64,000 bases of DNA from Oscillospiraceae bacterium (GTDB lineage Bacteria; Bacillota; Clostridia; Oscillospirales; Acutalibacteraceae), in assembly GCA_015066205.1 (NCBI GenBank), contig SVOV01000004.1, positions 30,852 to 94,851 of the forward strand, written 5' to 3'. Below, piece by piece: positions 38,650 through 46,164 of this stretch; the stretch's first letter is position 1, and each line of letters begins with the position of its first letter. The translations under genes were made by a program, and so were the position numbers. Under the pieces are notes generated by a model that was not told the DNA's origin, did no database searches, and saw only the letters and a list, made by a program, of their open reading frames with translations.

Positions 38650-39302
38650 ATAATTTTCTTCTGAAGAGAAAGAGGGAAAAGCTGTCCCTCAAAATCATTC
38701 AGACTGTCACATACAGATTTTTCTGCTGTAGTAAATATAACAGGAATTCCTGAAAGAAAGCTGAGTTTATTACATTCCTCCGAGGAAGAAAGAACAGCAC
38801 CGGCATCCGTCAGCTCCCCTATATTGGAATTGTTTATAATTGCAGTAAATTTTACCTTTGAGGCATCTTCAATTTCCTTCATTACCTCAAATGCACTTTC
38901 GGCATCACGGGTAAGAGGACGGTATTTATTGAAAACGAAAAACATATCGTAATCGTTTTCTTCCTTGATCTTATCCGCATATCTTCCGAGCGCATACGCT
39001 CCCCTGTCATCTCCTCCGAGATCCACAATATAGTGGCTTGACTTATCGTCAACAATGGAATACATATCCTGCGGGATCGCGGGAATATCCACATTGGAAT
39101 TTGCATATTCGGAAGAAATAAGCTTAATTCCCGCATCGTTCAGTTCATCAAGAGAATCCTTTGTTCTGAAATAGGGGTTTACTATATCAAGGTCCGCAAT
39201 AACGGTCTCAATTCCCTGTTTTTTCAGCATCAGGGCTAAATTTACCGCAATATTTGTTTTTCCCGAGCCGTAGTGGCCGGCTATTATTGTTATTCTTTTC
39301 AT
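38646..39302 (-). CDS. P-loop NTPase (MinD/ParA/CobQ-like fold) of unknown role
   Basis: Walker A GHYGSGKT at the N-terminus. Walker B-like IVDLGGDD. Embedded between the acyl-CoA synthetase and the oxidoreductase genes. Confidence 0.7.
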
Positions 39303-39306
39303 AATA

Positions 39307-41580
39307 TTAAAGCTTGTTTCTCTGAATCTTTCCGCTTATGGTCTTGGGAAGAGATTCTCTGAAAACAACTATTCTCGGATACTTATAAGGAGCTGTATGC
39401 TTCTTGACATAGTTCTGGATCTCCTTTTTGAGCTCTTCGGTGGGCTCGGTGCCTTTTGTAAGAACAATACTTGCCTTTACTATCTGACCTCTGAGTTCAT
39501 CAGGCTCAGCGGAAACACCGCATTCAAGGACATAGGGAAGCTCCATAATAACATTTTCGATTTCAAAGGGCCCGATACGGTAGCCTGAGGACTTGATAAC
39601 ATCATCAACTCTGCCGACATACCAGAAATGGCCGTCCTCGTCCTTCCATGCAAGGTCGCCTGTGTGATAATAACCGTCATGCCATACCTCTGCTGTCTTT
39701 TCAGGCTGATTGTAGTAGCCGAGGAAAAGTCCGCAAGGAACCTTTTCACTTGTCTTTACAACGATCTCGCCGTTTTCACCGAGCTGTGCGGGTGTGCCGT
39801 CGGGCTTTATGATATCAATATCATACATGGGATTTGCCTTACCCATTGAGCCGGGCTTCGGAGTCGTACCGAAGAGGTTTGCAATGGTAAGCGTGGTTTC
39901 TGTCTGGCCGAAGCCCTCCATAAGCTGAAGACCTGTTGCGGCTTCAAACTGCTTGAACACCTCGGGATTAAGGGCTTCGCCCGCAATGGTTGCGTGCTTT
40001 ATTGAAGACAGGTCATATTTTGAAAGATCCTGCTTTATTAACATTCTGTACATTGTGGGAGGTGCGCAGAAGGTCGTTATTCCGTATTTCGCGAACATAG
40101 GAAGTATAACGGCGGCATCAAAGCGGTCAAAGTCATATACAAATACAGAGCCTTCGCAAAGCCACTGACCGTAAAGCTTTCCCCATAATGCCTTACCCCA
40201 GCCTGTGTCGGAAATTGTAAAATGAAGTCCGTCCTTACTTACCGTATGCCAGTATTTTGCGGTAACAAAATGGGCGAGAGGATAAGAGAAGCTGTGAGTT
40301 GCGATTTTGGGATAGCCTGTAGTTCCCGATGTAAAGAACATAAGCATAGGGTCATTGCCCGAGGCTGTATCCTCTTCTCTTCTGAATCTTCTTGAGAAAA
40401 GCTTGTATTCGTCATCAAAGCTGTGCCAGCCCTCTCTTTTTTCACCTACAACAACCTTTGTTGTAAGAGTGGGACACTTATCTGCACATTCATCAACATG
40501 AGCGGGAGTATTATCATCCGATGTACAGATTATAGCACTGACACCGGCTGAATTAAACCGATACTCGAAATCGTGAGCCTGAAGCTGATGGGTAGCAGGA
40601 ATAACGATAGCACCAAGACGGTGAAGAGCAAGAATTGAGAACCAGAACTGATAATGACGCTTGAGAACAAGCATTACCCTGTCACCCTTTTTGATTCCGA
40701 GAGAACGGAAATAGTTTGCGGTCTGACAGGAATATTCCTTTATATCCTGATAAGTGAAAACGCGCTCTGTCATATCTCTTGCAATATGTACCATAGCTGT
40801 CTTATCGGGAGATTTCTTTGCTATTTTATCAACAACATCGAAAGCAAAGTTGAATTCATCGGTATTTTCAAAGGAAATATCAAGGAGCTTCCCTTCCTCA
40901 TCCTCAACGGGCTTTACGAATTTGTGACATACAAGAGATTCCGAAAGCTTTTCACCCGGAAGAACTCTGTGCTTTACAATATCCTCGGGAGCCTCATCTG
41001 AAGCGAGAATAAATGCAAGGAAAACACAGTCTCTTCCGTCAACGGCTATCATACCGTGGGGAGTTGAGCTCTTATAATAAATACTGTCACCCTCGTGAAG
41101 GATCTCGGTATGTTCACCGACTCTTACCATAAGAGTACCGCTTATGACCATATCAAATTCCTGACCTGCGTGGGTCGTTGTATGAATCGGTTTATTTTCA
41201 AGTTCAGCAGAATACTCGTAGCGTACCCAGTAGGGATCACCGAGCTTATCCTTAAAAAGAGGAGCAAGGTTCTGAATTTCTATTCCGTTTTCCTTTGCCG
41301 TTGTCTGGCCTTCGCCCTTTCTTGTAACGGTGTAGGATGTAAGCTTTGCACTGTGTCCCTCAAGAAGATCTGTAATTCCGATATCAAAGGCGAGAGCACA
41401 CTTATGAATAAACGAGAAAGGAAGATCCTCTTTTCCCGCCTCATATGAAGCATATTTTTCGGCTGAAACCTCAGTTTTTTCTGCCATTTCTTCTACAGAA
41501 AAATCGCAGATGGAACGCATTTCCTTAATTCGGCGAGCCACCTCATAAAGTTTATTGTCCGTATTCGTTGTCGTTGGCAT
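39307..41580 (-). CDS. Fusion protein: XRE-type HTH + cupin + AMP-forming short/medium-chain acyl-CoA synthetase
   Basis: HTH (VARRIKEMRSICDFSVEEMAEKTEVSAEKYASYEAG). Cupin (GQEFDMVISGTLMVRVGEHTEILHEGDSIYYKSSTPH). AMP-binding motifs FFTSGTTGYPK, TGWGK, GQTE, YHTGD and SGKIQR. Confidence 0.85.
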   Translation of the reverse strand: MPTTTNTDNKLYEVARRIKEMRSICDFSVEEMAEKTEVSAEKYASYEAGKEDLPFSFIHKCALAFDIGITDLLEGHSAKLTSYTVTRKGEGQTTAKENGIEIQNLAPLFKDKLGDPYWVRYEYSAELENKPIHTTTHAGQEFDMVISGTLMVRVGEHTEILHEGDSIYYKSSTPHGMIAVDGRDCVFLAFILASDEAPEDIVKHRVLPGEKLSESLVCHKFVKPVEDEEGKLLDISFENTDEFNFAFDVVDKIAKKSPDKTAMVHIARDMTERVFTYQDIKEYSCQTANYFRSLGIKKGDRVMLVLKRHYQFWFSILALHRLGAIVIPATHQLQAHDFEYRFNSAGVSAIICTSDDNTPAHVDECADKCPTLTTKVVVGEKREGWHSFDDEYKLFSRRFRREEDTASGNDPMLMFFTSGTTGYPKIATHSFSYPLAHFVTAKYWHTVSKDGLHFTISDTGWGKALWGKLYGQWLCEGSVFVYDFDRFDAAVILPMFAKYGITTFCAPPTMYRMLIKQDLSKYDLSSIKHATIAGEALNPEVFKQFEAATGLQLMEGFGQTETTLTIANLFGTTPKPGSMGKANPMYDIDIIKPDGTPAQLGENGEIVVKTSEKVPCGLFLGYYNQPEKTAEVWHDGYYHTGDLAWKDEDGHFWYVGRVDDVIKSSGYRIGPFEIENVIMELPYVLECGVSAEPDELRGQIVKASIVLTKGTEPTEELKKEIQNYVKKHTAPYKYPRIVVFRESLPKTISGKIQRNKL

Positions 41581-41868
41581 ACTGAAAAACCTCCTTTGAT
41601 AAAAAAATAATCCGTCCCAAAGAAAAGACTTTGAGACGGAAACTTAAACATTTTCCGCGGTACCACTCAAATTGCAAAGACTATAGTCTTTACCGCTTCA
41701 GAGTCCGACAACTCCTTTGCACTAACGGGGCAACTCCCGGGAAACACTACTGCAGTTTCGCATTTCCGGCTCAGAAGTGATAACCGTTTGAAAGCATCCT
41801 CTTACGGCTTGCACCAACCGCCGCTTCTCTGATTCAGACAGCTTTCAGGCCTCTTCGTCACAGCCATT
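41581..41868 (-). promoter_or_regulatory. T-box riboswitch leader, specifier read as AUC (Ile)
   Basis: Minus strand elements: K-turn base (GGCU GUGAC GAAG ... CUUC UGA GCC), AG bulge AGAGAA, distal loop UGGUGCAA, F-box CCGUUA, T-box AAUUUGAGUGGUACCGCGG (complement of 41655-41673). Terminator at 41601-41640 (12-bp stem plus T-run), then AAAGGAGG RBS. Codon AUC followed by A lies at complement of 41778-41781, immediately 5' of the 4-bp helix above the K-turn. Confidence 0.85.
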
Positions 41869-41874
41869 GAATGA

Positions 41875-41903
41875 ATAATAACATAAGTATATATATTTGT
41901 CAA
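41875..41903 (-). promoter_or_regulatory. Sigma-70 type promoter TTGACA-17-TATTAT for the Ile T-box operon
   Basis: -35 at complement of 41898-41903, -10 at complement of 41875-41880, exact 17-nt spacer. Confidence 0.7.
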
Positions 41904-41939
41904 TATCACAAATTTAATAAAATCAATTAATATTTTTAA

Positions 41940-44438
41940 TCAAGCGGTCACTATGGAATCCGCCTTCTGAAGACCGAGCTTTTCTATGGCATCCTCACGC
42001 ATTTTATACTTGAGTATCTTACCTGCGGCATTCATCGGGAAGGAGTCAGTAAAATCAATATATTTCGGAACCTTATGCTTTGCCATATGGTCTCTTACAT
42101 ACTGCTTCATTTCGTCCGCCGTCATACTTTCGCCGTCCTTAAGAATAATGCATGCCATAATTTCCTCGCCCATAGCTTCATCAGGAACACCGATGACCTG
42201 TACATCGCTGACCTTGGGATGGGTATAAATGAATTCTTCAATTTCCTTGGGATAAATATTTTCACCGCCGCGGATGATCATATCCTTGAGTCTTCCCGTA
42301 ATTCTGTAATTTCCCTCGGGAGTACGGCAGGCAAGGTCACCCGTATGAAGCCATCCGTCCTTGTCTATTGCTGAAGCGGTGGCTTTCGGCATTTTATAAT
42401 AGCCTTTCATTATATTGTATCCGCGGGCAACGAATTCACCTGTTACATTATCGGGACAGTCCTCGCCTGTTTCGGGATCTACAATTTTACATTCAATTTC
42501 GGGGAGTGCTCTTCCGACAGTTGCAACTCTCACCTCGAGGGGATCATCGGTGCTGCTCATAGTACATCCGGGAGAAGATTCGGTCTGACCGTAAACTATG
42601 GTGATCTCCTTCATATGCATTTTGTCAACAACATCCTGCATAACACTTATGGGACAGGGTGAGCCTGCCATAATACCCGTTCTCATATATGAGAAATCCG
42701 TTTTCGGGAAATCGTCGTGACCCAGAAGTGCAATAAACATCGTGGGAACGCCGTGGAAGGCGGTTATTTTTTCATTGTTGATACAAGAGAGTGCGGGCTT
42801 AGGCGAGAAATAAGGAAGAGGCATCAGGGAAGCACCGTGAGTCATGGAAGCTGTCATTGCGAGCACCATTCCGAAGCAATGGAACATAGGAACCTGAATC
42901 ATCATACGATCAGCAGTTGAAAGATCCATTCTGTCGCCGATGCATTTTCCGTTATTGACTACATTGTGGTGAGTAAGCATAACGCCCTTGGGGAAGCCCG
43001 TTGTACCCGAGGTATACTGCATATTGCAGACATCGTCCTTATCGACCTGTGCGGCATAACGGTACACCTCTTCAACAGGAACATTCTTGCCTTTTTCAAT
43101 AGCTTCATCCCATGTCATACAGCCGTTCATTGAAAATCCGCAGGTTATAACATTTCTTAAGAAAGGAAGCCTTTTTGCGTGAAGCGGCTCACCGACAGGG
43201 TTTTCTTCAAGCTCGGGACAAAGCTCCTTTACAATAGAAGCATAATCGGAATCGCGGTACTTATCTATCATAATAAGAGTATGTGTATCCGACTGTCTTA
43301 AAAGATATTCCGCCTCGTGAATTTTATAAGCGGTATTGACGGTTACAAGAACGGCGCCGATTTTTGTAACAGCCCAGAAAGCAATATACCACTGCGGGAT
43401 ATTGGTAGCCCACACGGCAACATGTGTTCCCGGACGAACACCCATAGCAATAAGGCTTTTTGCAAAGGTATCAACATCATCACGGAACTGTGAATATGTT
43501 CTTGTATAATCAAGAGTTGTATATTTGAAAGCTATCTGGTCGGGGAAGGCGGCACACTGTGCATCAAGAACCTGAGAAAATGTGCAGTCTATAAGCTGTT
43601 CCTTTTTCCAGATAAATCTGCCGTCGCCTGTTTTATTACGGTAATAATGATTTTTGTTCTTTTTTGGGTTGCCGTAAGCATTCATATGCGATTCAAAGAA
43701 GGTGAGAATGACCTCATCGTCTTCAATTTCGGGAAGCCACGCGGAATTCCATTCTATACATACATAGCCGTTATAATTTACGGAGCGAAGTGCATTTATC
43801 ATATCGGTAACGGGAAGACTTCCCTCTCCTATAAGAACGGGAGTGCCGTCATCTGCGGCATCGTTTATCTTTACGGATTTTACATATGCACCGAGATTCT
43901 TTATTGTGATTTCAGCTTCCTCCCTTGCCTTGAAATATGTTGCGTACATATTCCAGCAGGCAGCTATGCTGTCACTGGCAAATTTATCGAGAGTTGTGCA
44001 TAATACTCCTGAATCGCAATAAACCCCGTCGGTTTCTATTAGAATTATTACATTCCTTTCACAGGCTCTTTCAATAAGCTCTCCGATAAATTTTTCCGCA
44101 ATATCAATGCTTCCGGAAGCAAAGACCTTAACAAAGTCCACATTAAGATCTGATGCCGTATCAATAATATCATAAGCCTTTACGAGATTTTCATTATATT
44201 TTTCTTCATCTGAAATATCACAGGGAATGTCAAGCTGTGAAATTGCAATACCTGAATTAAGAAGCTTTCTTTTTGTTGAGGGAATACCCGCCTTGAGGAA
44301 GGAGGGCTTTTCACCGAGAAAGCATTCCTTATTCATATCATATATTTCAACAGCAGAGAATTTCTGTGCCTTGGCTAAAGACAGATAGCCCGCAAGGGGC
44401 ATATCCTCCATGTATCTTGTTGAAAATGCGAGTTTCAT
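41940..44438 (-). CDS. Fusion protein: xylose-isomerase-like TIM barrel (AP endonuclease 2 superfamily) + AMP-dependent acyl-CoA ligase (YngI/ACSF2-like)
   Basis: The N-terminal ~255 aa has the TIM-barrel pattern (AVEIYD, VKVFASG, ILIETDG, VCIEWNS). The C-terminal part has YTSGTTGFPKGV, GQTE, LHTGD, RGGENIYP and GKILK. Confidence 0.8.
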   Translation of the reverse strand: MKLAFSTRYMEDMPLAGYLSLAKAQKFSAVEIYDMNKECFLGEKPSFLKAGIPSTKRKLLNSGIAISQLDIPCDISDEEKYNENLVKAYDIIDTASDLNVDFVKVFASGSIDIAEKFIGELIERACERNVIILIETDGVYCDSGVLCTTLDKFASDSIAACWNMYATYFKAREEAEITIKNLGAYVKSVKINDAADDGTPVLIGEGSLPVTDMINALRSVNYNGYVCIEWNSAWLPEIEDDEVILTFFESHMNAYGNPKKNKNHYYRNKTGDGRFIWKKEQLIDCTFSQVLDAQCAAFPDQIAFKYTTLDYTRTYSQFRDDVDTFAKSLIAMGVRPGTHVAVWATNIPQWYIAFWAVTKIGAVLVTVNTAYKIHEAEYLLRQSDTHTLIMIDKYRDSDYASIVKELCPELEENPVGEPLHAKRLPFLRNVITCGFSMNGCMTWDEAIEKGKNVPVEEVYRYAAQVDKDDVCNMQYTSGTTGFPKGVMLTHHNVVNNGKCIGDRMDLSTADRMMIQVPMFHCFGMVLAMTASMTHGASLMPLPYFSPKPALSCINNEKITAFHGVPTMFIALLGHDDFPKTDFSYMRTGIMAGSPCPISVMQDVVDKMHMKEITIVYGQTESSPGCTMSSTDDPLEVRVATVGRALPEIECKIVDPETGEDCPDNVTGEFVARGYNIMKGYYKMPKATASAIDKDGWLHTGDLACRTPEGNYRITGRLKDMIIRGGENIYPKEIEEFIYTHPKVSDVQVIGVPDEAMGEEIMACIILKDGESMTADEMKQYVRDHMAKHKVPKYIDFTDSFPMNAAGKILKYKMREDAIEKLGLQKADSIVTA

Positions 44439-45841
44439 TATCTGTTCTCCTCAAAAGCGATTTTGTTAAGAGCATTAAGATAAGCCTTTATACTTGCACC
44501 TATAACATCGGTGGAAAGACCGCTGCCCGAATAAAGCTTTCCCGAATCGGAGCGAAGCTTTACAAGAGCCTGACCCATAGCCTCTCTGCCCTCGGTAACG
44601 GACTGGATCTGGAAATCATCAAGCTCAAAATGATGTCCGACAACCTGTTCTATAGCAAGAAATGCCGCATCAATGGGACCGTCGCCGACATAAACACCGG
44701 TAAGAGTCTTTTTGTCCTTTTCAATACAGAGATTAGCGGTTGCGGTAATGATATTACCTGCATTTATTACATAGCTTTTAAGTTTGTAGGTTGACGGAAC
44801 CTGCATTGCGGCAGAAGCGATAATTGCCTCAAGCTCCTTTGTTCCGATATATTCCTTGTTTTCGCAGAGCTTTACGAATTCCTCATATACCTTTGCGCTG
44901 TCCTCGTGGCTCAGCTCATAGCCTATTTTTTGAACTGCGGCGGCAACGGTTGAATAATCGTCATTCTTATGAAGCTCTATCTCCTCGTCACTTCTGACAA
45001 CACCGTCATAGGGAGATTCCTTTTCTGTGTCCTTTGAAACGATGGCAGAGAGCTTTTCACATACATTTTTGAGAGTAGCTGTTTTGATTCCCGTTGTAAC
45101 GCCCAGCTTTTCACCCTTTACAAACAGGAAAGCAGAAATATTTTCGATTTTAAGATAGCCTGAATCAAAAACAGTAGTCTTGATGCCTGTTGCTCCGTTT
45201 TTAACAGCTGCAGCGGCACAGGCTGTTGACATATTTATTTCATCTGAAATATCTACGATAACATCCTTTTTATCTATACCGTCACAGTTTTCATAAATAT
45301 CTTTAATAAAGGCTGAAAATTCCTCTGCATCGGCACATCCTGCGTCATCGGAAAGAGATATGATGTCAGCACCGGCTTTTATTGCGGTATTAATTGCTTT
45401 ATATAAGAATTCCTTTTCGGCTCTTGAAGCATCAAGAGCTGAAAACTCAACCTTTTCACAAAGAGTCTTGCACATTGTCACAAGCTCTTCTATTCTCTCA
45501 AGCATTTTTGCGGGCTTAAGAGAGCTTATATATTCCATTCCTGCAGGAGAAACGGGAACAGCTACACTGAGAATACCCTTTTTTGCATCCTTCATACAAG
45601 AAGCGGCGCACTGTACGGATTCTTTTGTAAGACCTACAGGAACGCTGACTGCACTCTTTTCAATCACACTTACTATGTTTTTTATAAGCAGAGTGTCTGT
45701 TTTTTCGTTTTTTATTGCGGGAAGCTCAATTATATCAACACCAAGCTTATCAAGCTGCTTAGCTGTTTCTGTTTTTTCTCTGAAGCTCAAAGGTGTTTTC
45801 AATACTGTAAGTGTCTTGTCTGTAATAAGAATCTTTTTCAT
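44438..45841 (-). CDS. 2-isopropylmalate/citramalate synthase-like protein with degenerate catalytic motifs and an intact LeuA-dimer (regulatory) domain
   Basis: HMGL-like fold, but DTTLRDGEQ is replaced by TDKTLTVLKT and HxH(N)D by VDISDEINMS. The C-terminal GDGPIDAAFLAIE...VTEGREAMGQALV...SGSGLSTDVIGASIKAYLNALNK is typical of the LeuA_dimer domain. TAATG overlap with the downstream gene. Confidence 0.75.
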   Translation of the reverse strand: MKKILITDKTLTVLKTPLSFREKTETAKQLDKLGVDIIELPAIKNEKTDTLLIKNIVSVIEKSAVSVPVGLTKESVQCAASCMKDAKKGILSVAVPVSPAGMEYISSLKPAKMLERIEELVTMCKTLCEKVEFSALDASRAEKEFLYKAINTAIKAGADIISLSDDAGCADAEEFSAFIKDIYENCDGIDKKDVIVDISDEINMSTACAAAAVKNGATGIKTTVFDSGYLKIENISAFLFVKGEKLGVTTGIKTATLKNVCEKLSAIVSKDTEKESPYDGVVRSDEEIELHKNDDYSTVAAAVQKIGYELSHEDSAKVYEEFVKLCENKEYIGTKELEAIIASAAMQVPSTYKLKSYVINAGNIITATANLCIEKDKKTLTGVYVGDGPIDAAFLAIEQVVGHHFELDDFQIQSVTEGREAMGQALVKLRSDSGKLYSGSGLSTDVIGASIKAYLNALNKIAFEENR

Positions 45842-46129
45842 TTCTACCTGCTCCTTAAAAAAATAAGTCCCTGAAACTAAATGTTTCAGGGACGATAAAT
45901 ATACCGCGGTACCACCCTAATTGCTGATTTTTCAGCCGCTTGTAAAGCTCTTTCAAGCCCTTGACCGTGATAACGGGGTCTGCCGCAATTCCCTATAAAC
46001 CCAACGGCGTTGAGGAACCGTGCTCCGATACGAGACAGACCGTAAACTCCGCTGCCGTCTTACACCATCCGACGGCTCTCTGTAAGCTACCATAAACGGT
46101 CTTAATATCATCACTGCATTTATAATGTT
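45842..46129 (-). promoter_or_regulatory. T-box riboswitch leader, specifier read as CUC (Leu)
   Basis: Minus strand elements: K-turn (UGC AGUGAU GAUA ... UAUC GGA GCA), AG bulge AGAGAG, distal loop AUGGUGUAA, F-box CCGUUA, canonical T-box AAUUAGGGUGGUACCGCGG (complement of 45901-45923). Terminator at 45857-45893 (11-bp stem plus T7), then AAGGAG RBS. CUC followed by G lies at complement of 46031-46034, in the same position relative to the K-turn as AUC-A in the other leader. Confidence 0.8.
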
Positions 46130-46135
46130 AAATGC

Positions 46136-46164
46136 AGTATACTAAAAATAAGCCTTTAAGTCAA
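46136..46164 (-). promoter_or_regulatory. Sigma-70 type promoter TTGACT-17-TATACT for the Leu T-box operon
   Basis: -35 at complement of 46159-46164, -10 at complement of 46136-46141, 17-nt spacer. The -10/+1 region overlaps a perfect 10-bp inverted repeat (46113-46122 / 46129-46138). Confidence 0.65.

Follow-up and report, generated by a model that had tools for sequence, protein, structure and literature searches.

The LeuA-like protein encoded at positions 44438..45841 (-) of the window (the whole 64,000-nt stretch of DNA analysed here) is, on well-supported sequence grounds, a pseudo-enzyme, that is, a non-catalytic paralogue of 2-isopropylmalate synthase. We favour a scenario, to which we assign a probability of about 0.55, in which this dead LeuA would act as the leucine-sensing or docking subunit of an isovalerate-activating ligase within a T-box-controlled route of leucine salvage. 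The first-pass annotation had described the protein as LeuA- or citramalate-synthase-like, and profile matches agree: HMGL-like (PF00682) covers residues 14-258 (2e-31, 109.8 bits) and LeuA_dimer (PF08502) covers residues 334-461 (3.8e-30, 104.9 bits, 127 of 131 profile positions). Its scores lie below equivalog level, with 266.9 bits against a cut-off of 532 for the best NCBIfam LeuA match (NF002086) and 244.5 against 598.7 for TIGR00973. An AlphaFold check had also been proposed, and its single-protein part indicates that the LeuA fold is retained; in the AF2 model the barrel has a pLDDT above 90, residues 271-286 are disordered, and Foldseek places the barrel on the LeuA catalytic domains 3ewb and 3eeg with a TM of 0.92-0.93 and an rmsd of 1.7-2.1 Å.

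Table 1. Features of the LeuA-like locus and its neighbours, by position in the window.
Feature	Position	Strand	Details
Sigma-70-like promoter, leucine unit	46136..46164	(-)	TTGACT-17-TATACT; consensus scan 10/12, pattern match only; just upstream of the T-box
Leu T-box leader, CUC specifier	45885..46123	(-)	Rfam RF00230, 106.8 bits (gathering 93), E 1.3e-22
Intrinsic terminator of Leu T-box	45867..45893	(-)	Terminator scan; 11-bp stem, then TTATTTTTTT
LeuA-like protein, 467 aa	44438..45841	(-)	ATG start, AAGGAG ribosome-binding site; degenerate DRE-TIM barrel ~1-270, disordered stump (former subdomain I) 271-286, subdomain II ~296-333, LeuA_dimer regulatory domain 334-461
TIM/ligase fusion, 832 aa	41940..44438	(-)	Xylose-isomerase-like TIM ~1-270, AMP-forming acyl-CoA ligase ~280-832
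Sigma-70-like promoter, isoleucine unit	41875..41903	(-)	TTGACA-17-TATTAT with TG; consensus scan 11/12
Second T-box leader, AUC (Ile) specifier	41629..41870	(-)	RF00230, 88.7 bits (just under gathering 93), E 4.9e-20
Terminator of Ile T-box	41611-41640	(-)	Terminator scan
HTH + cupin + acyl-CoA synthetase fusion, 757 aa	39307..41580	(-)	Pfam HTH_19, Cupin_2, AMP-binding
P-loop (CbiA/ParA-like) protein	38646..39302	(-)	Pfam CbiA, 2e-08
Four-subunit 2-oxoacid:ferredoxin oxidoreductase	36067..38649	(-)	Pfam POR_N/PFOR_II, TPP_enzyme_C, POR; delta ferredoxin 38425-38649, alpha 37358-38428, beta 36600-37361, gamma 36067-36603
Branched-chain amino acid aminotransferase	34990..36051	(-)	NF009897, 469 bits (cut-off 307); Pfam Aminotran_4

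To read motif losses, we aligned the protein with E. coli LeuA and with LeuA catalytic domains of solved structure; family columns were taken over 117 members. It had been claimed from the sequence by eye that the N-terminal DTTLRDGEQ signature and the HxH(N)D metal motif were replaced, and inspection of the catalytic columns, which the same annotation had suggested, bears this out, every catalytic element being missing across a conserved family. In the window protein DTTLRDGEQ has become DKTLTVLK plus a deletion (Arg to Thr, metal Asp to Val), SCEDA has become SALDA (general-base Glu to Leu) and HTHDD has become DISDE, with D-I-S at the place of the HxH metal motif. Across the family the Arg column is variable (R in 55/117), the commonest residues of the Asp column (E/C/G/A/V/N/Q/T, together 115/117) do not include Asp, the general-base Glu column varies, and no His occurs at either HxH position in any of the 117 members. 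We predict that the protein would show no activity in condensing acetyl-CoA with 2-oxoisovalerate. Two deletions that had been overlooked earlier are present in 117/117 members: one takes four residues (IGER) out of the GIGERAGN loop, the other the entire AHSSGIH segment of subdomain I. The window protein has thereby no subdomain I, with its catalytic His, at all.

Loss of all catalytic motifs could also mark a leuA pseudogene decaying after the de novo pathway was lost, a reading to which we give almost no credence. At least 595 species-representative genomes, mostly Clostridia, carry this architecture of ~467 aa, and the ORFs of full-length relatives, at 46-82% identity, span 466-472 aa with start and domain boundaries conserved; intact ORFs on this scale refute the pseudogene reading, and strong C-terminal constraint also argues against it, as do the gene's own T-box and its constant partner gene. 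The LeuA-like gene is not decaying; it is not a pseudogene because it persists in so many species as full-length ORFs with a strongly constrained regulatory domain and with residues common to E. coli LeuA. What the family presents is an enzyme paralogue with its catalytic residues lost and under purifying selection.

The best-conserved part of the protein is its regulatory domain, with a mean pairwise identity in the family alignment of 0.79 vs 0.48 for the barrel and with 55 of its 134 columns invariant, compared with 28 of 270 in the barrel. The C-terminal LeuA_dimer-type domain had been judged well preserved from the sequence, in agreement with its PF08502 match: GDGPIDAAF, EGREAMGQ and STDVIGAS are present in the window protein and near-invariant across the family, and 26 family-invariant residues of the domain, including GxGPxDA, are common to E. 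coli LeuA. A PF08502 domain is able to act as a stand-alone amino-acid sensor (PMC13381585), and we infer that the one in the LeuA-like protein binds leucine. Since it is only 27% identical to that of E. coli LeuA and the corresponding domain of citramalate synthase (CimA) binds isoleucine, not leucine (PMC13381585), the identity of the ligand rests on the T-box.

The leucine link of the LeuA-like gene is independently supported by the T-box leader directly upstream, which has the marks of the leucine class: a score above gathering, a specifier in register and a terminator. The 3' strand of its specifier loop reads CUGU-CUC-G and is followed by the stem UAUC, with a purine after CUC. By covariance-model alignment a leucine specifier is found in 59 of 59 related loci (CUC in 42 and CUG in 17, a synonymous switch), and pairing is complete (100%) in the stem that fixes the register, three of whose four pairs show compensatory changes. 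It is rather improbable, in our estimate, that the protein senses something other than leucine, such as 2-oxoisocaproate, isovalerate, isovaleryl-CoA or isoleucine; the difference in PF08502 specificity between LeuA and CimA (PMC13381585) and the ~27% identity to a known Leu-binding domain would allow this, but the operon responds to tRNA-Leu in all 59 loci, and the accessory module of the isoleucine and valine arms is another one, HTH-cupin. At its 3' end the T-box match runs into the terminator. In a few loci the LeuA-like gene lies behind the aminotransferase and has no T-box of its own, which counts against the favoured reading.

The downstream partner of the LeuA-like gene matches AP_endonuc_2, AMP-binding and AMP-binding_C in Pfam and PRK12583 at 695 bits in NCBIfam, and its TIM and ligase parts form a single ORF, with ligase motifs conserved, in 74 of 74 relatives. 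The overlap of the LeuA-like stop with the ligase start (TAATG), pointed out in the first-pass annotation as a tie between the two genes, is confirmed at this locus. The tie extends beyond it, as the fusion lies immediately 3' of the LeuA-like gene at each related locus whose contig extends beyond it, and stop and start overlap or are no more than 3 nt apart in 51/74 loci. Distances of the barrel and the fused TIM domain co-vary (r 0.87; partial 0.74 given the ligase) to a greater degree than do those of the barrel and its own regulatory domain (0.61). This is a weak hint of contact and could just reflect two fast-evolving domains.

Strict linkage, translational coupling and the co-variation of barrel and fused TIM are also what would be expected of a purely structural or assembly subunit, in which a dead LeuA dimer joins two TIM/ligases, or anchors them to the oxidoreductase, and senses nothing, the C-terminal domain being a dimerisation module only. 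The Pfam domain is indeed also named a 'dimerisation' domain, and regulatory domains form the dimer contact in LeuA (PMC9860122). We nevertheless consider this unlikely, as GxGPxDA and G-x-x-A-x-G, invariant in the family, are common to feedback-regulated LeuA, 55/134 invariant columns represent constraint far above what is usual for a simple interface, and leucine-specific control of transcription suits a leucine-related function. One point that counts against a sensor is that sensing alone does not need a 270-residue barrel.

The LeuA-like protein may instead take part with the ligase's TIM domain, whose metal ligands mostly remain in many relatives, in a catalytic step. Were it an enzyme even now, its active site rebuilt, it could, alone or with the fused TIM, catalyse a so far unrecognised step in the formation of leucine from a precursor other than plain isovalerate. 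In keeping with this, (i) the barrel is retained at high model confidence; (ii) D8, T10, E39, D137, R140 and K221 of the barrel are invariant; (iii) in many relatives the fused TIM retains most of the canonical Glu/Asp/His/Glu metal ligands and is weakly similar to keto-sugar epimerases and hydroxypyruvate isomerase and (iv) 17 loci have an Amidohydro_2 gene after the ligase. However, subdomain I, which caps the active site, has been deleted, and ordinary LeuA likewise conserves the invariant barrel residues, for structural reasons. Apart from one Asp, each TIM metal ligand is replaced in a sizeable fraction of members, and in the window protein three positions are substituted (N163, S188 and K190). 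Moreover, the barrel shows no new conserved constellation, since each column that was once catalytic varies freely across the family. Overall we regard a surviving enzyme as distinctly improbable, slightly more so than a sensor of another ligand.

With regard to the wider cluster, the genes 3' of the TIM/ligase are, in order, the HTH-cupin-synthetase with an Ile T-box upstream, the oxidoreductase and the branched-chain aminotransferase. The specifier of the second T-box is ATC by covariance-model alignment, where that of the first is CTC; ligase paralogues with Ile (AUC) T-boxes occur in 30 loci, and Val (GUC/GUA) paralogues, an addition seen in relatives, in 14. The best NCBIfam match of the HTH-cupin-synthetase is MbcS (432 bits, below the cut-off of 850), and this protein is probably the 2-methylbutyrate-activating enzyme of the isoleucine arm. 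The oxidoreductase gene set is predicted to be a 2-oxoisovalerate:ferredoxin oxidoreductase (VOR), with an alpha subunit matching VorB (NF005507, 541.9 bits vs a cut-off of 399), a 74-aa 2x[4Fe-4S] delta subunit, and the beta and gamma domains present. The P-loop protein adjoins the oxidoreductase in 29 related loci and matched no NCBIfam family. From gene content, we read the cluster as a putative pathway from branched-chain acids to amino acids by reductive carboxylation. Precedent comes from labelling work on rumen bacteria, which form leucine from isovalerate by carboxylation (Allison 1962, PMC279306; 1966, PMC1058419; both as cited in PMC7356843); isobutyrate is the corresponding source of valine (Allison and Peel 1971, PMC1176590).

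In the scenario that we favour, the leucine sensor, the LeuA-like gene would be transcribed from its own promoter through the leucine-specific T-box, and its product would therefore be made only with uncharged tRNA-Leu. The gene would be translationally coupled to the TIM-barrel/AMP-forming acyl-CoA ligase, whose predicted reaction is the conversion of isovalerate to isovaleryl-CoA and which probably starts the isovalerate-to-leucine route of gut and rumen bacteria. The VOR-type enzyme would then convert isovaleryl-CoA to 2-oxoisocaproate by reductive carboxylation, and the neighbouring aminotransferase would yield leucine. The dead LeuA, in which the retained LeuA barrel would serve as scaffold and the regulatory domain would sense the ligand, would bind the ligase, probably by a barrel-to-TIM contact, and would exert rapid leucine feedback, presumably inhibitory, on the ATP-costly activation of isovalerate. 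Since it would confer leucine feedback on the ligase, a sensor taken from the enzyme that opens de novo synthesis would have been reused on the one that opens salvage. Each arm would have its own T-box and accessory sensor, LeuA-like/TIM for leucine or HTH-cupin, and pathway logic does not require a LeuA-like partner, because the isoleucine and valine arms have none. The broader proposal, that LeuA's leucine module moved between pathways and that the surrounding genes are the missing genetic basis of the isovalerate route, with three T-box arms (Leu, Ile and Val) that share a single VOR and a single aminotransferase, we hold tentatively, at a little under even odds.

A conceptual parallel is HisZ, a catalytically dead histidyl-tRNA-synthetase paralogue that serves as the histidine-sensing regulatory subunit of the short-form ATP phosphoribosyltransferase HisG. 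Both would be enzyme paralogues without catalysis that act as end-product-sensing subunits of a pathway's first enzyme. The complex and allostery are experimentally established for HisZ, whereas those of the dead LeuA are predicted; fold and partner also differ, and the LeuA donor and the regulated ligase belong to two alternative routes to leucine. The Brassicaceae enzyme methylthioalkylmalate synthase (PDB 6e1j), which ranks with the best structural matches, is likewise a LeuA descendant with a changed role; it lost the regulatory domain and kept catalysis, and the LeuA-like family is its mirror image. Short-form LeuA (NF002086/TIGR00973; PDB 3ewb, 3eeg, 3rmj, 1sr9) shares the DRE-TIM fold, subdomain II, LeuA_dimer and GxGPxDA with the LeuA-like protein, in which Arg-Asp, Glu, HxH, GIGERAGN and subdomain I are substituted or deleted and whose gene sits with an acyl-CoA ligase, not in an ilv-leu operon. 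IlvH/IlvN, the valine-binding small subunit of acetohydroxyacid synthase, is also a separate polypeptide with a branched-chain regulatory domain, and IlvH has been used as a Val sensor (PMC13381585); its domain is ACT-type, not PF08502, and it does not derive from a catalytic paralogue. The isovalerate carboxylation pathway matches the cluster in its predicted order of acid, acyl-CoA, 2-oxo acid and amino acid and in its rumen and gut Clostridia habitat, although the classical work (PMC279306, PMC1058419) defined it through labelling and not genetically.

In the literature searched, no paper turned up that links these genes, the LeuA-like protein or the three T-box arms to that pathway, nor any gene-level account of the branched-chain acid pathway or its control. 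The locus gives candidates for every step, and the T-box arms (59/59 Leu, 30 Ile and 14 Val) suggest a clear regulatory logic in which the leucine arm would have an unusual protein solution. That fibre-degrading Clostridia of the rumen and gut need or use branched-chain volatile fatty acids for leucine, isoleucine and valine has been known since the 1960s, and isoacid feed supplements rest on this use. A LeuA-derived pseudo-enzyme in hundreds of species would also be a new case of allosteric-module reuse, and its gene could serve as a metagenome marker of leucine salvage from isovalerate.

The expectation that annotation pipelines would call the gene leuA or cimA proved mostly wrong: all six NCBI-named members are called 'hypothetical protein' and one JGI record reads 2-isopropylmalate synthase, and the window protein reaches 267 bits against the LeuA cut-off of 532. 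Automated metabolic reconstruction calls for caution either way, as the label leuA would be taken, wrongly, to indicate de novo leucine synthesis and the label 'hypothetical' conceals a putative leucine-salvage marker.

The 467-aa LeuA-like protein is a relative of LeuA by fold and descent that falls outside the enzyme family on every catalytic criterion. Pfam assigns residues 14-258 to an HMGL-like barrel (E 2e-31) and residues 334-461 to the LeuA allosteric/dimerisation domain (E 3.8e-30), and the NCBIfam LeuA equivalog models score it at about half their cut-offs (266.9 bits, cut-off 532; 244.5 bits, cut-off 598.7). Alignment to E. coli LeuA and to the catalytic domains of solved LeuA structures revealed that: (i) DTTLRDGEQ has become DKTLTVLK followed by a deletion, with Arg replaced by Thr and the metal-binding Asp by Val; (ii) the Glu of SCEDA is Leu; (iii) HTHDD reads DISDE; (iv) the GIGERAGN loop is short by four residues and (v) the subdomain-I segment including the AHSSGIH motif is wholly deleted. 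The motif replacements listed in the first-pass annotation were thus every one borne out, and the SCEDA replacement and the deletions come in addition. The AlphaFold model (mean pLDDT 85, barrel above 90) superposes its barrel on LeuA catalytic domains at 1.7-2.1 Å (TM 0.92-0.93), leaves a disordered stump at residues 271-286 where subdomain I would be expected, and has full-length M. tuberculosis LeuA as its best structural match. A phmmer search of the C-terminal 174 aa against the PDB gave chance matches only, and the gene had no blastn match in E. coli genomes. The protein cannot act as a LeuA-type catalyst, and it is very probably non-catalytic altogether.

Features of the window around the LeuA-like gene
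Feature	Position	Strand	Remarks
Large surface-type protein	5100-7694	-
Large surface-type protein	18141-21593	-
Large surface-type protein	32356-33399	-
M20 family peptidase or deacylase	33444-34904	-	directly 3' of the aminotransferase gene
P-loop (CbiA/ParA-like) protein	38646-39302	-	218 aa; no NCBIfam family
HTH + cupin + acyl-CoA synthetase fusion	39307-41580	-	N-terminal XRE-type HTH; best NCBIfam match MbcS, under cut-off
Terminator of Ile T-box	41611-41640	-	own terminator
Second T-box	41629-41870	-	88.7 bits, gathering score 93; E 4.9e-20; specifier AUC-A (Ile)
Promoter-like site of Ile unit	41875-41903	-	own site of the second T-box
Xylose-isomerase-like TIM domain	43629-44438	-	within the 832-aa TIM/ligase fusion (41940-44438), at its N terminus
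LeuA-like ORF	44438..45841	-	467 aa; ATG start, AAGGAG just 5'
Canonical terminator of leucine T-box	45867-45893	-	terminator scan
T-box leader	45885-46123	-	Rfam 106.8 bits, gathering score 93; directly 5' of the LeuA-like gene
Promoter-like site of leucine unit	46136-46164	-	pattern scan
310-aa ORF	46254-47186	-	no Pfam family
Thioredoxin-like ORF	47199-47510	-	5' of the leucine unit, beside the 310-aa ORF
Large surface-type protein	47859-54755	-

The same losses run through the whole family. At least 117 full-length relatives (463-472 aa, most 466-472; 46-82% identity) came out of a protein search, all with both Pfam domains, and in a scan of one genome per species at least 595 of at least 600 matched stretches encode one. 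Annotation pipelines had been expected to call such genes leuA or cimA, which proved mostly wrong: the NCBI-named relatives are "hypothetical protein" and one JGI record reads 2-isopropylmalate synthase. Across the 117 aligned members, His occurs at neither HxH position (0/117), the IGER and AHSSGIH deletions are universal and the columns that once held the Arg, Asp and Glu vary. The most constrained region is the regulatory domain (mean pairwise identity 0.79; 55 of 134 columns invariant), against 0.48 and 28 of 270 for the barrel, and 26 of its family-invariant residues are identical to E. coli LeuA, including GxGPxDA, G-x-x-A-x-G and GxGxxTD. With catalytic columns variable and the regulatory domain constrained, what selection maintains is the C-terminal domain and the fold of the barrel rather than an active site of the LeuA type. 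The protein is therefore kept by selection, foremost in its regulatory domain; pseudogene decay of leuA is ruled out by this conservation. The first-pass interpretation, a LeuA pseudo-enzyme serving as a leucine-sensing or scaffolding subunit, is supported in part and considerably sharpened. A second, canonical LeuA gene was found neither in the window nor in the 80 related loci (pieces of about 20 kb).

The hosts of the 80 loci listed are mostly gut and rumen Clostridia, with Acutalibacteraceae, Oscillospiraceae, Lachnospiraceae, Faecousia, Ruminococcus and Christensenellaceae among them. Three loci labelled Coriobacteriaceae, Eggerthellaceae and Synergistaceae (L010, L011 and L034) carry the same module of LeuA-like and TIM/ligase genes at about 47-50% identity, the cause being either horizontal transfer or faulty binning or labelling of metagenomes.

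Production of the LeuA-like protein is confined to leucine limitation by the T-box directly upstream, whose specifier loop, CUC-G, holds a leucine codon. The reading register comes from an alignment of 39 Stem I sequences, the window's and those of related loci, in which every sequence (100%) pairs the 4-bp stem immediately 3' of the specifier codon and three of the four pairs show compensatory changes; when the partner strand is slid, pairing falls to about 35%. A strict regular expression for the specifier worked and left 17 elements uncalled, and a relaxed one yielded spurious codons; we used instead a covariance model built from the Stem I alignment, which picked up 110 Stem I elements across the window and the 80 loci. 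An RNAalifold-only model (R1, 6 pairs) was set aside. All 59 T-boxes 5' of a LeuA-like gene carry a leucine specifier (42 CUC, 17 CUG), and this synonymous switch argues by itself for a leucine reading of the triplet.

The next gene, in all 80 loci with a continuing contig, encodes a xylose-isomerase-like TIM barrel and an AMP-forming acyl-CoA ligase, the two being a single ORF in 74 of 74. The LeuA-like stop and the fusion start overlap or lie at most 3 nt apart in 51 of these 74; in the window they share one base in TAATG, as the first-pass annotation had it. The LeuA-like protein is always co-produced with the TIM/ligase protein. Among related loci the ligase part is 67-93% identical with its adenylation motifs intact, and the TIM part is less conserved (30-75%).

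A plausible scenario is that the ligase activates isovalerate and that dead LeuA is a bound partner which places the ligase under leucine feedback. Docking of a dead-LeuA dimer on the TIM domain of the ligase would be a simple re-use of LeuA machinery. HisZ, a dead paralogue of an aminoacyl-tRNA synthetase and the histidine sensor of HisG, follows a like logic, with a dead enzyme paralogue as end-product sensor. Plant methylthioalkylmalate synthase, which has lost its regulatory domain and kept catalysis, is the mirror image of the LeuA-like family, where the regulatory domain is what was kept. There is precedent in LeuA itself, whose regulatory domains dimerise, the dimer containing the leucine site and signalling to the partner chain's barrel (PMC9860122), and the homologous domain of citramalate synthase is a portable isoleucine sensor (PMC13381585). 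We favor the possibility that the LeuA-like protein is a leucine-sensing regulatory subunit of the ligase, at odds slightly better than even (about 0.55). In this role it would be a further case of a pseudo-enzyme regulatory subunit, a known kind; the literature searched held no description of an IPMS pseudo-enzyme, which is not proof of absence. In 64 paired loci the between-locus distances of the LeuA-like barrel correlate with those of the fused TIM domain at r 0.87 (partial r 0.74 with the ligase controlled for), above the 0.61 for the barrel and its own regulatory domain. Two fast-evolving domains could yield the same correlation, so we give it little weight, as a weak hint of docking on the ligase.

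The main rival is that the leucine arm includes a catalytic step not yet recognised. In many relatives the TIM domain has retained the majority of its Glu/Asp/His/Glu metal ligands, and 17 related loci have an Amidohydro_2 gene (PF04909, 270 aa; e.g. L081:13892-14779, + strand) at most about 20 nt after the ligase; the gene is absent from the window, and its family includes reversible decarboxylases. The closest named NCBIfam families of the TIM domain are keto-sugar epimerases and hydroxypyruvate isomerase, far under cut-off, and solved structures gave marginal sequence matches only. These misfits keep the catalytic step in play as a rival, but every metal ligand is replaced in a sizeable share of members except one Asp, the invariant D193, and the window's domain has N163, S188 and K190 at three canonical positions. 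Since the ligands are lost in the window's clade, the leucine arm may carry two decayed barrels there.

Downstream lies an isoleucine unit whose T-box, being under the Rfam gathering score, is overlooked by a default scan. No terminator was found between the TIM/ligase end and the Ile-unit promoter (41904-41939, - strand), and read-through from the leucine unit would meet the Ile T-box. MbcS, the best match of its HTH-cupin-ligase, is a methylbutyryl-CoA synthetase; the pairing of a DNA-binding domain with an adenylating enzyme is reminiscent of enzyme/repressors of the BirA type. The P-loop protein, kept between ligase and oxidoreductase genes in 29 related loci, could have a maturation role or drive an ATP-coupled step. 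A four-subunit 2-oxoacid:ferredoxin oxidoreductase (alpha subunit 542 bits, VorB cut-off 399) and a branched-chain aminotransferase (469 bits, cut-off 307) complete the set, which about half of the related loci share in varied arrangements, in many cases with a pair of HTH-cupin-ligase paralogues (e.g. L017, L022, L029). The paralogue nearer the window's copy (55-100% identity) has an AUC T-box in front in all 30 cases; the more distant one (41-50%) has GUC or GUA (14 cases). By these specifiers, the cluster comprises three arms responding to Leu, Ile and Val starvation, each starting with an ATP-consuming acid-activating enzyme and all sharing one 2-oxoisovalerate:ferredoxin oxidoreductase (VOR) and one aminotransferase. 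The Ile and Val arms have no LeuA-like partner, having HTH-cupin domains in its stead, and a 270-residue barrel, superfluous for a bare sensor, does not fit leucine sensing neatly; the other main rivals are a purely structural role and the sensing of a different ligand.

A T-box turns its genes on when the matching tRNA is uncharged; the cluster is therefore biosynthetic. A role in amino-acid catabolism was ruled out, as the T-boxes are on in amino-acid starvation and the ligases belong to the AMP-forming type. The window encodes no biosynthetic ilv or leu genes. The cluster matches the branched-chain acid carboxylation route that labelling experiments demonstrated in ruminococci and in further rumen bacteria (Allison et al. 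1962, PMC279306; Allison et al. 1966, PMC1058419; Allison and Peel 1971, PMC1176590; cited in PMC7356843). We consider it likely that the LeuA-like unit is the leucine arm of this acid-to-amino-acid pathway. The literature searched held no description of a T-box-controlled ligase/VOR cluster, again not proof of absence; the locus supplies candidates for both the genes and the regulation of a pathway that has for sixty years been known biochemically only.

With regard to the other neighbours, the M20 gene is kept in the closest relatives (L002-L004) and is possibly in the same transcription unit as the aminotransferase, and the 310-aa and thioredoxin-like ORFs are kept as a pair in the three closest relatives only. 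The surface-type set comprises a 2298-aa repeat protein, a dockerin-bearing protein, a BspA-type LRR protein and a Listeria-Bacteroides-repeat protein. These point to a cellulosome-bearing, host-associated Clostridium, and the dockerin protein fits a fibre-degrading one.
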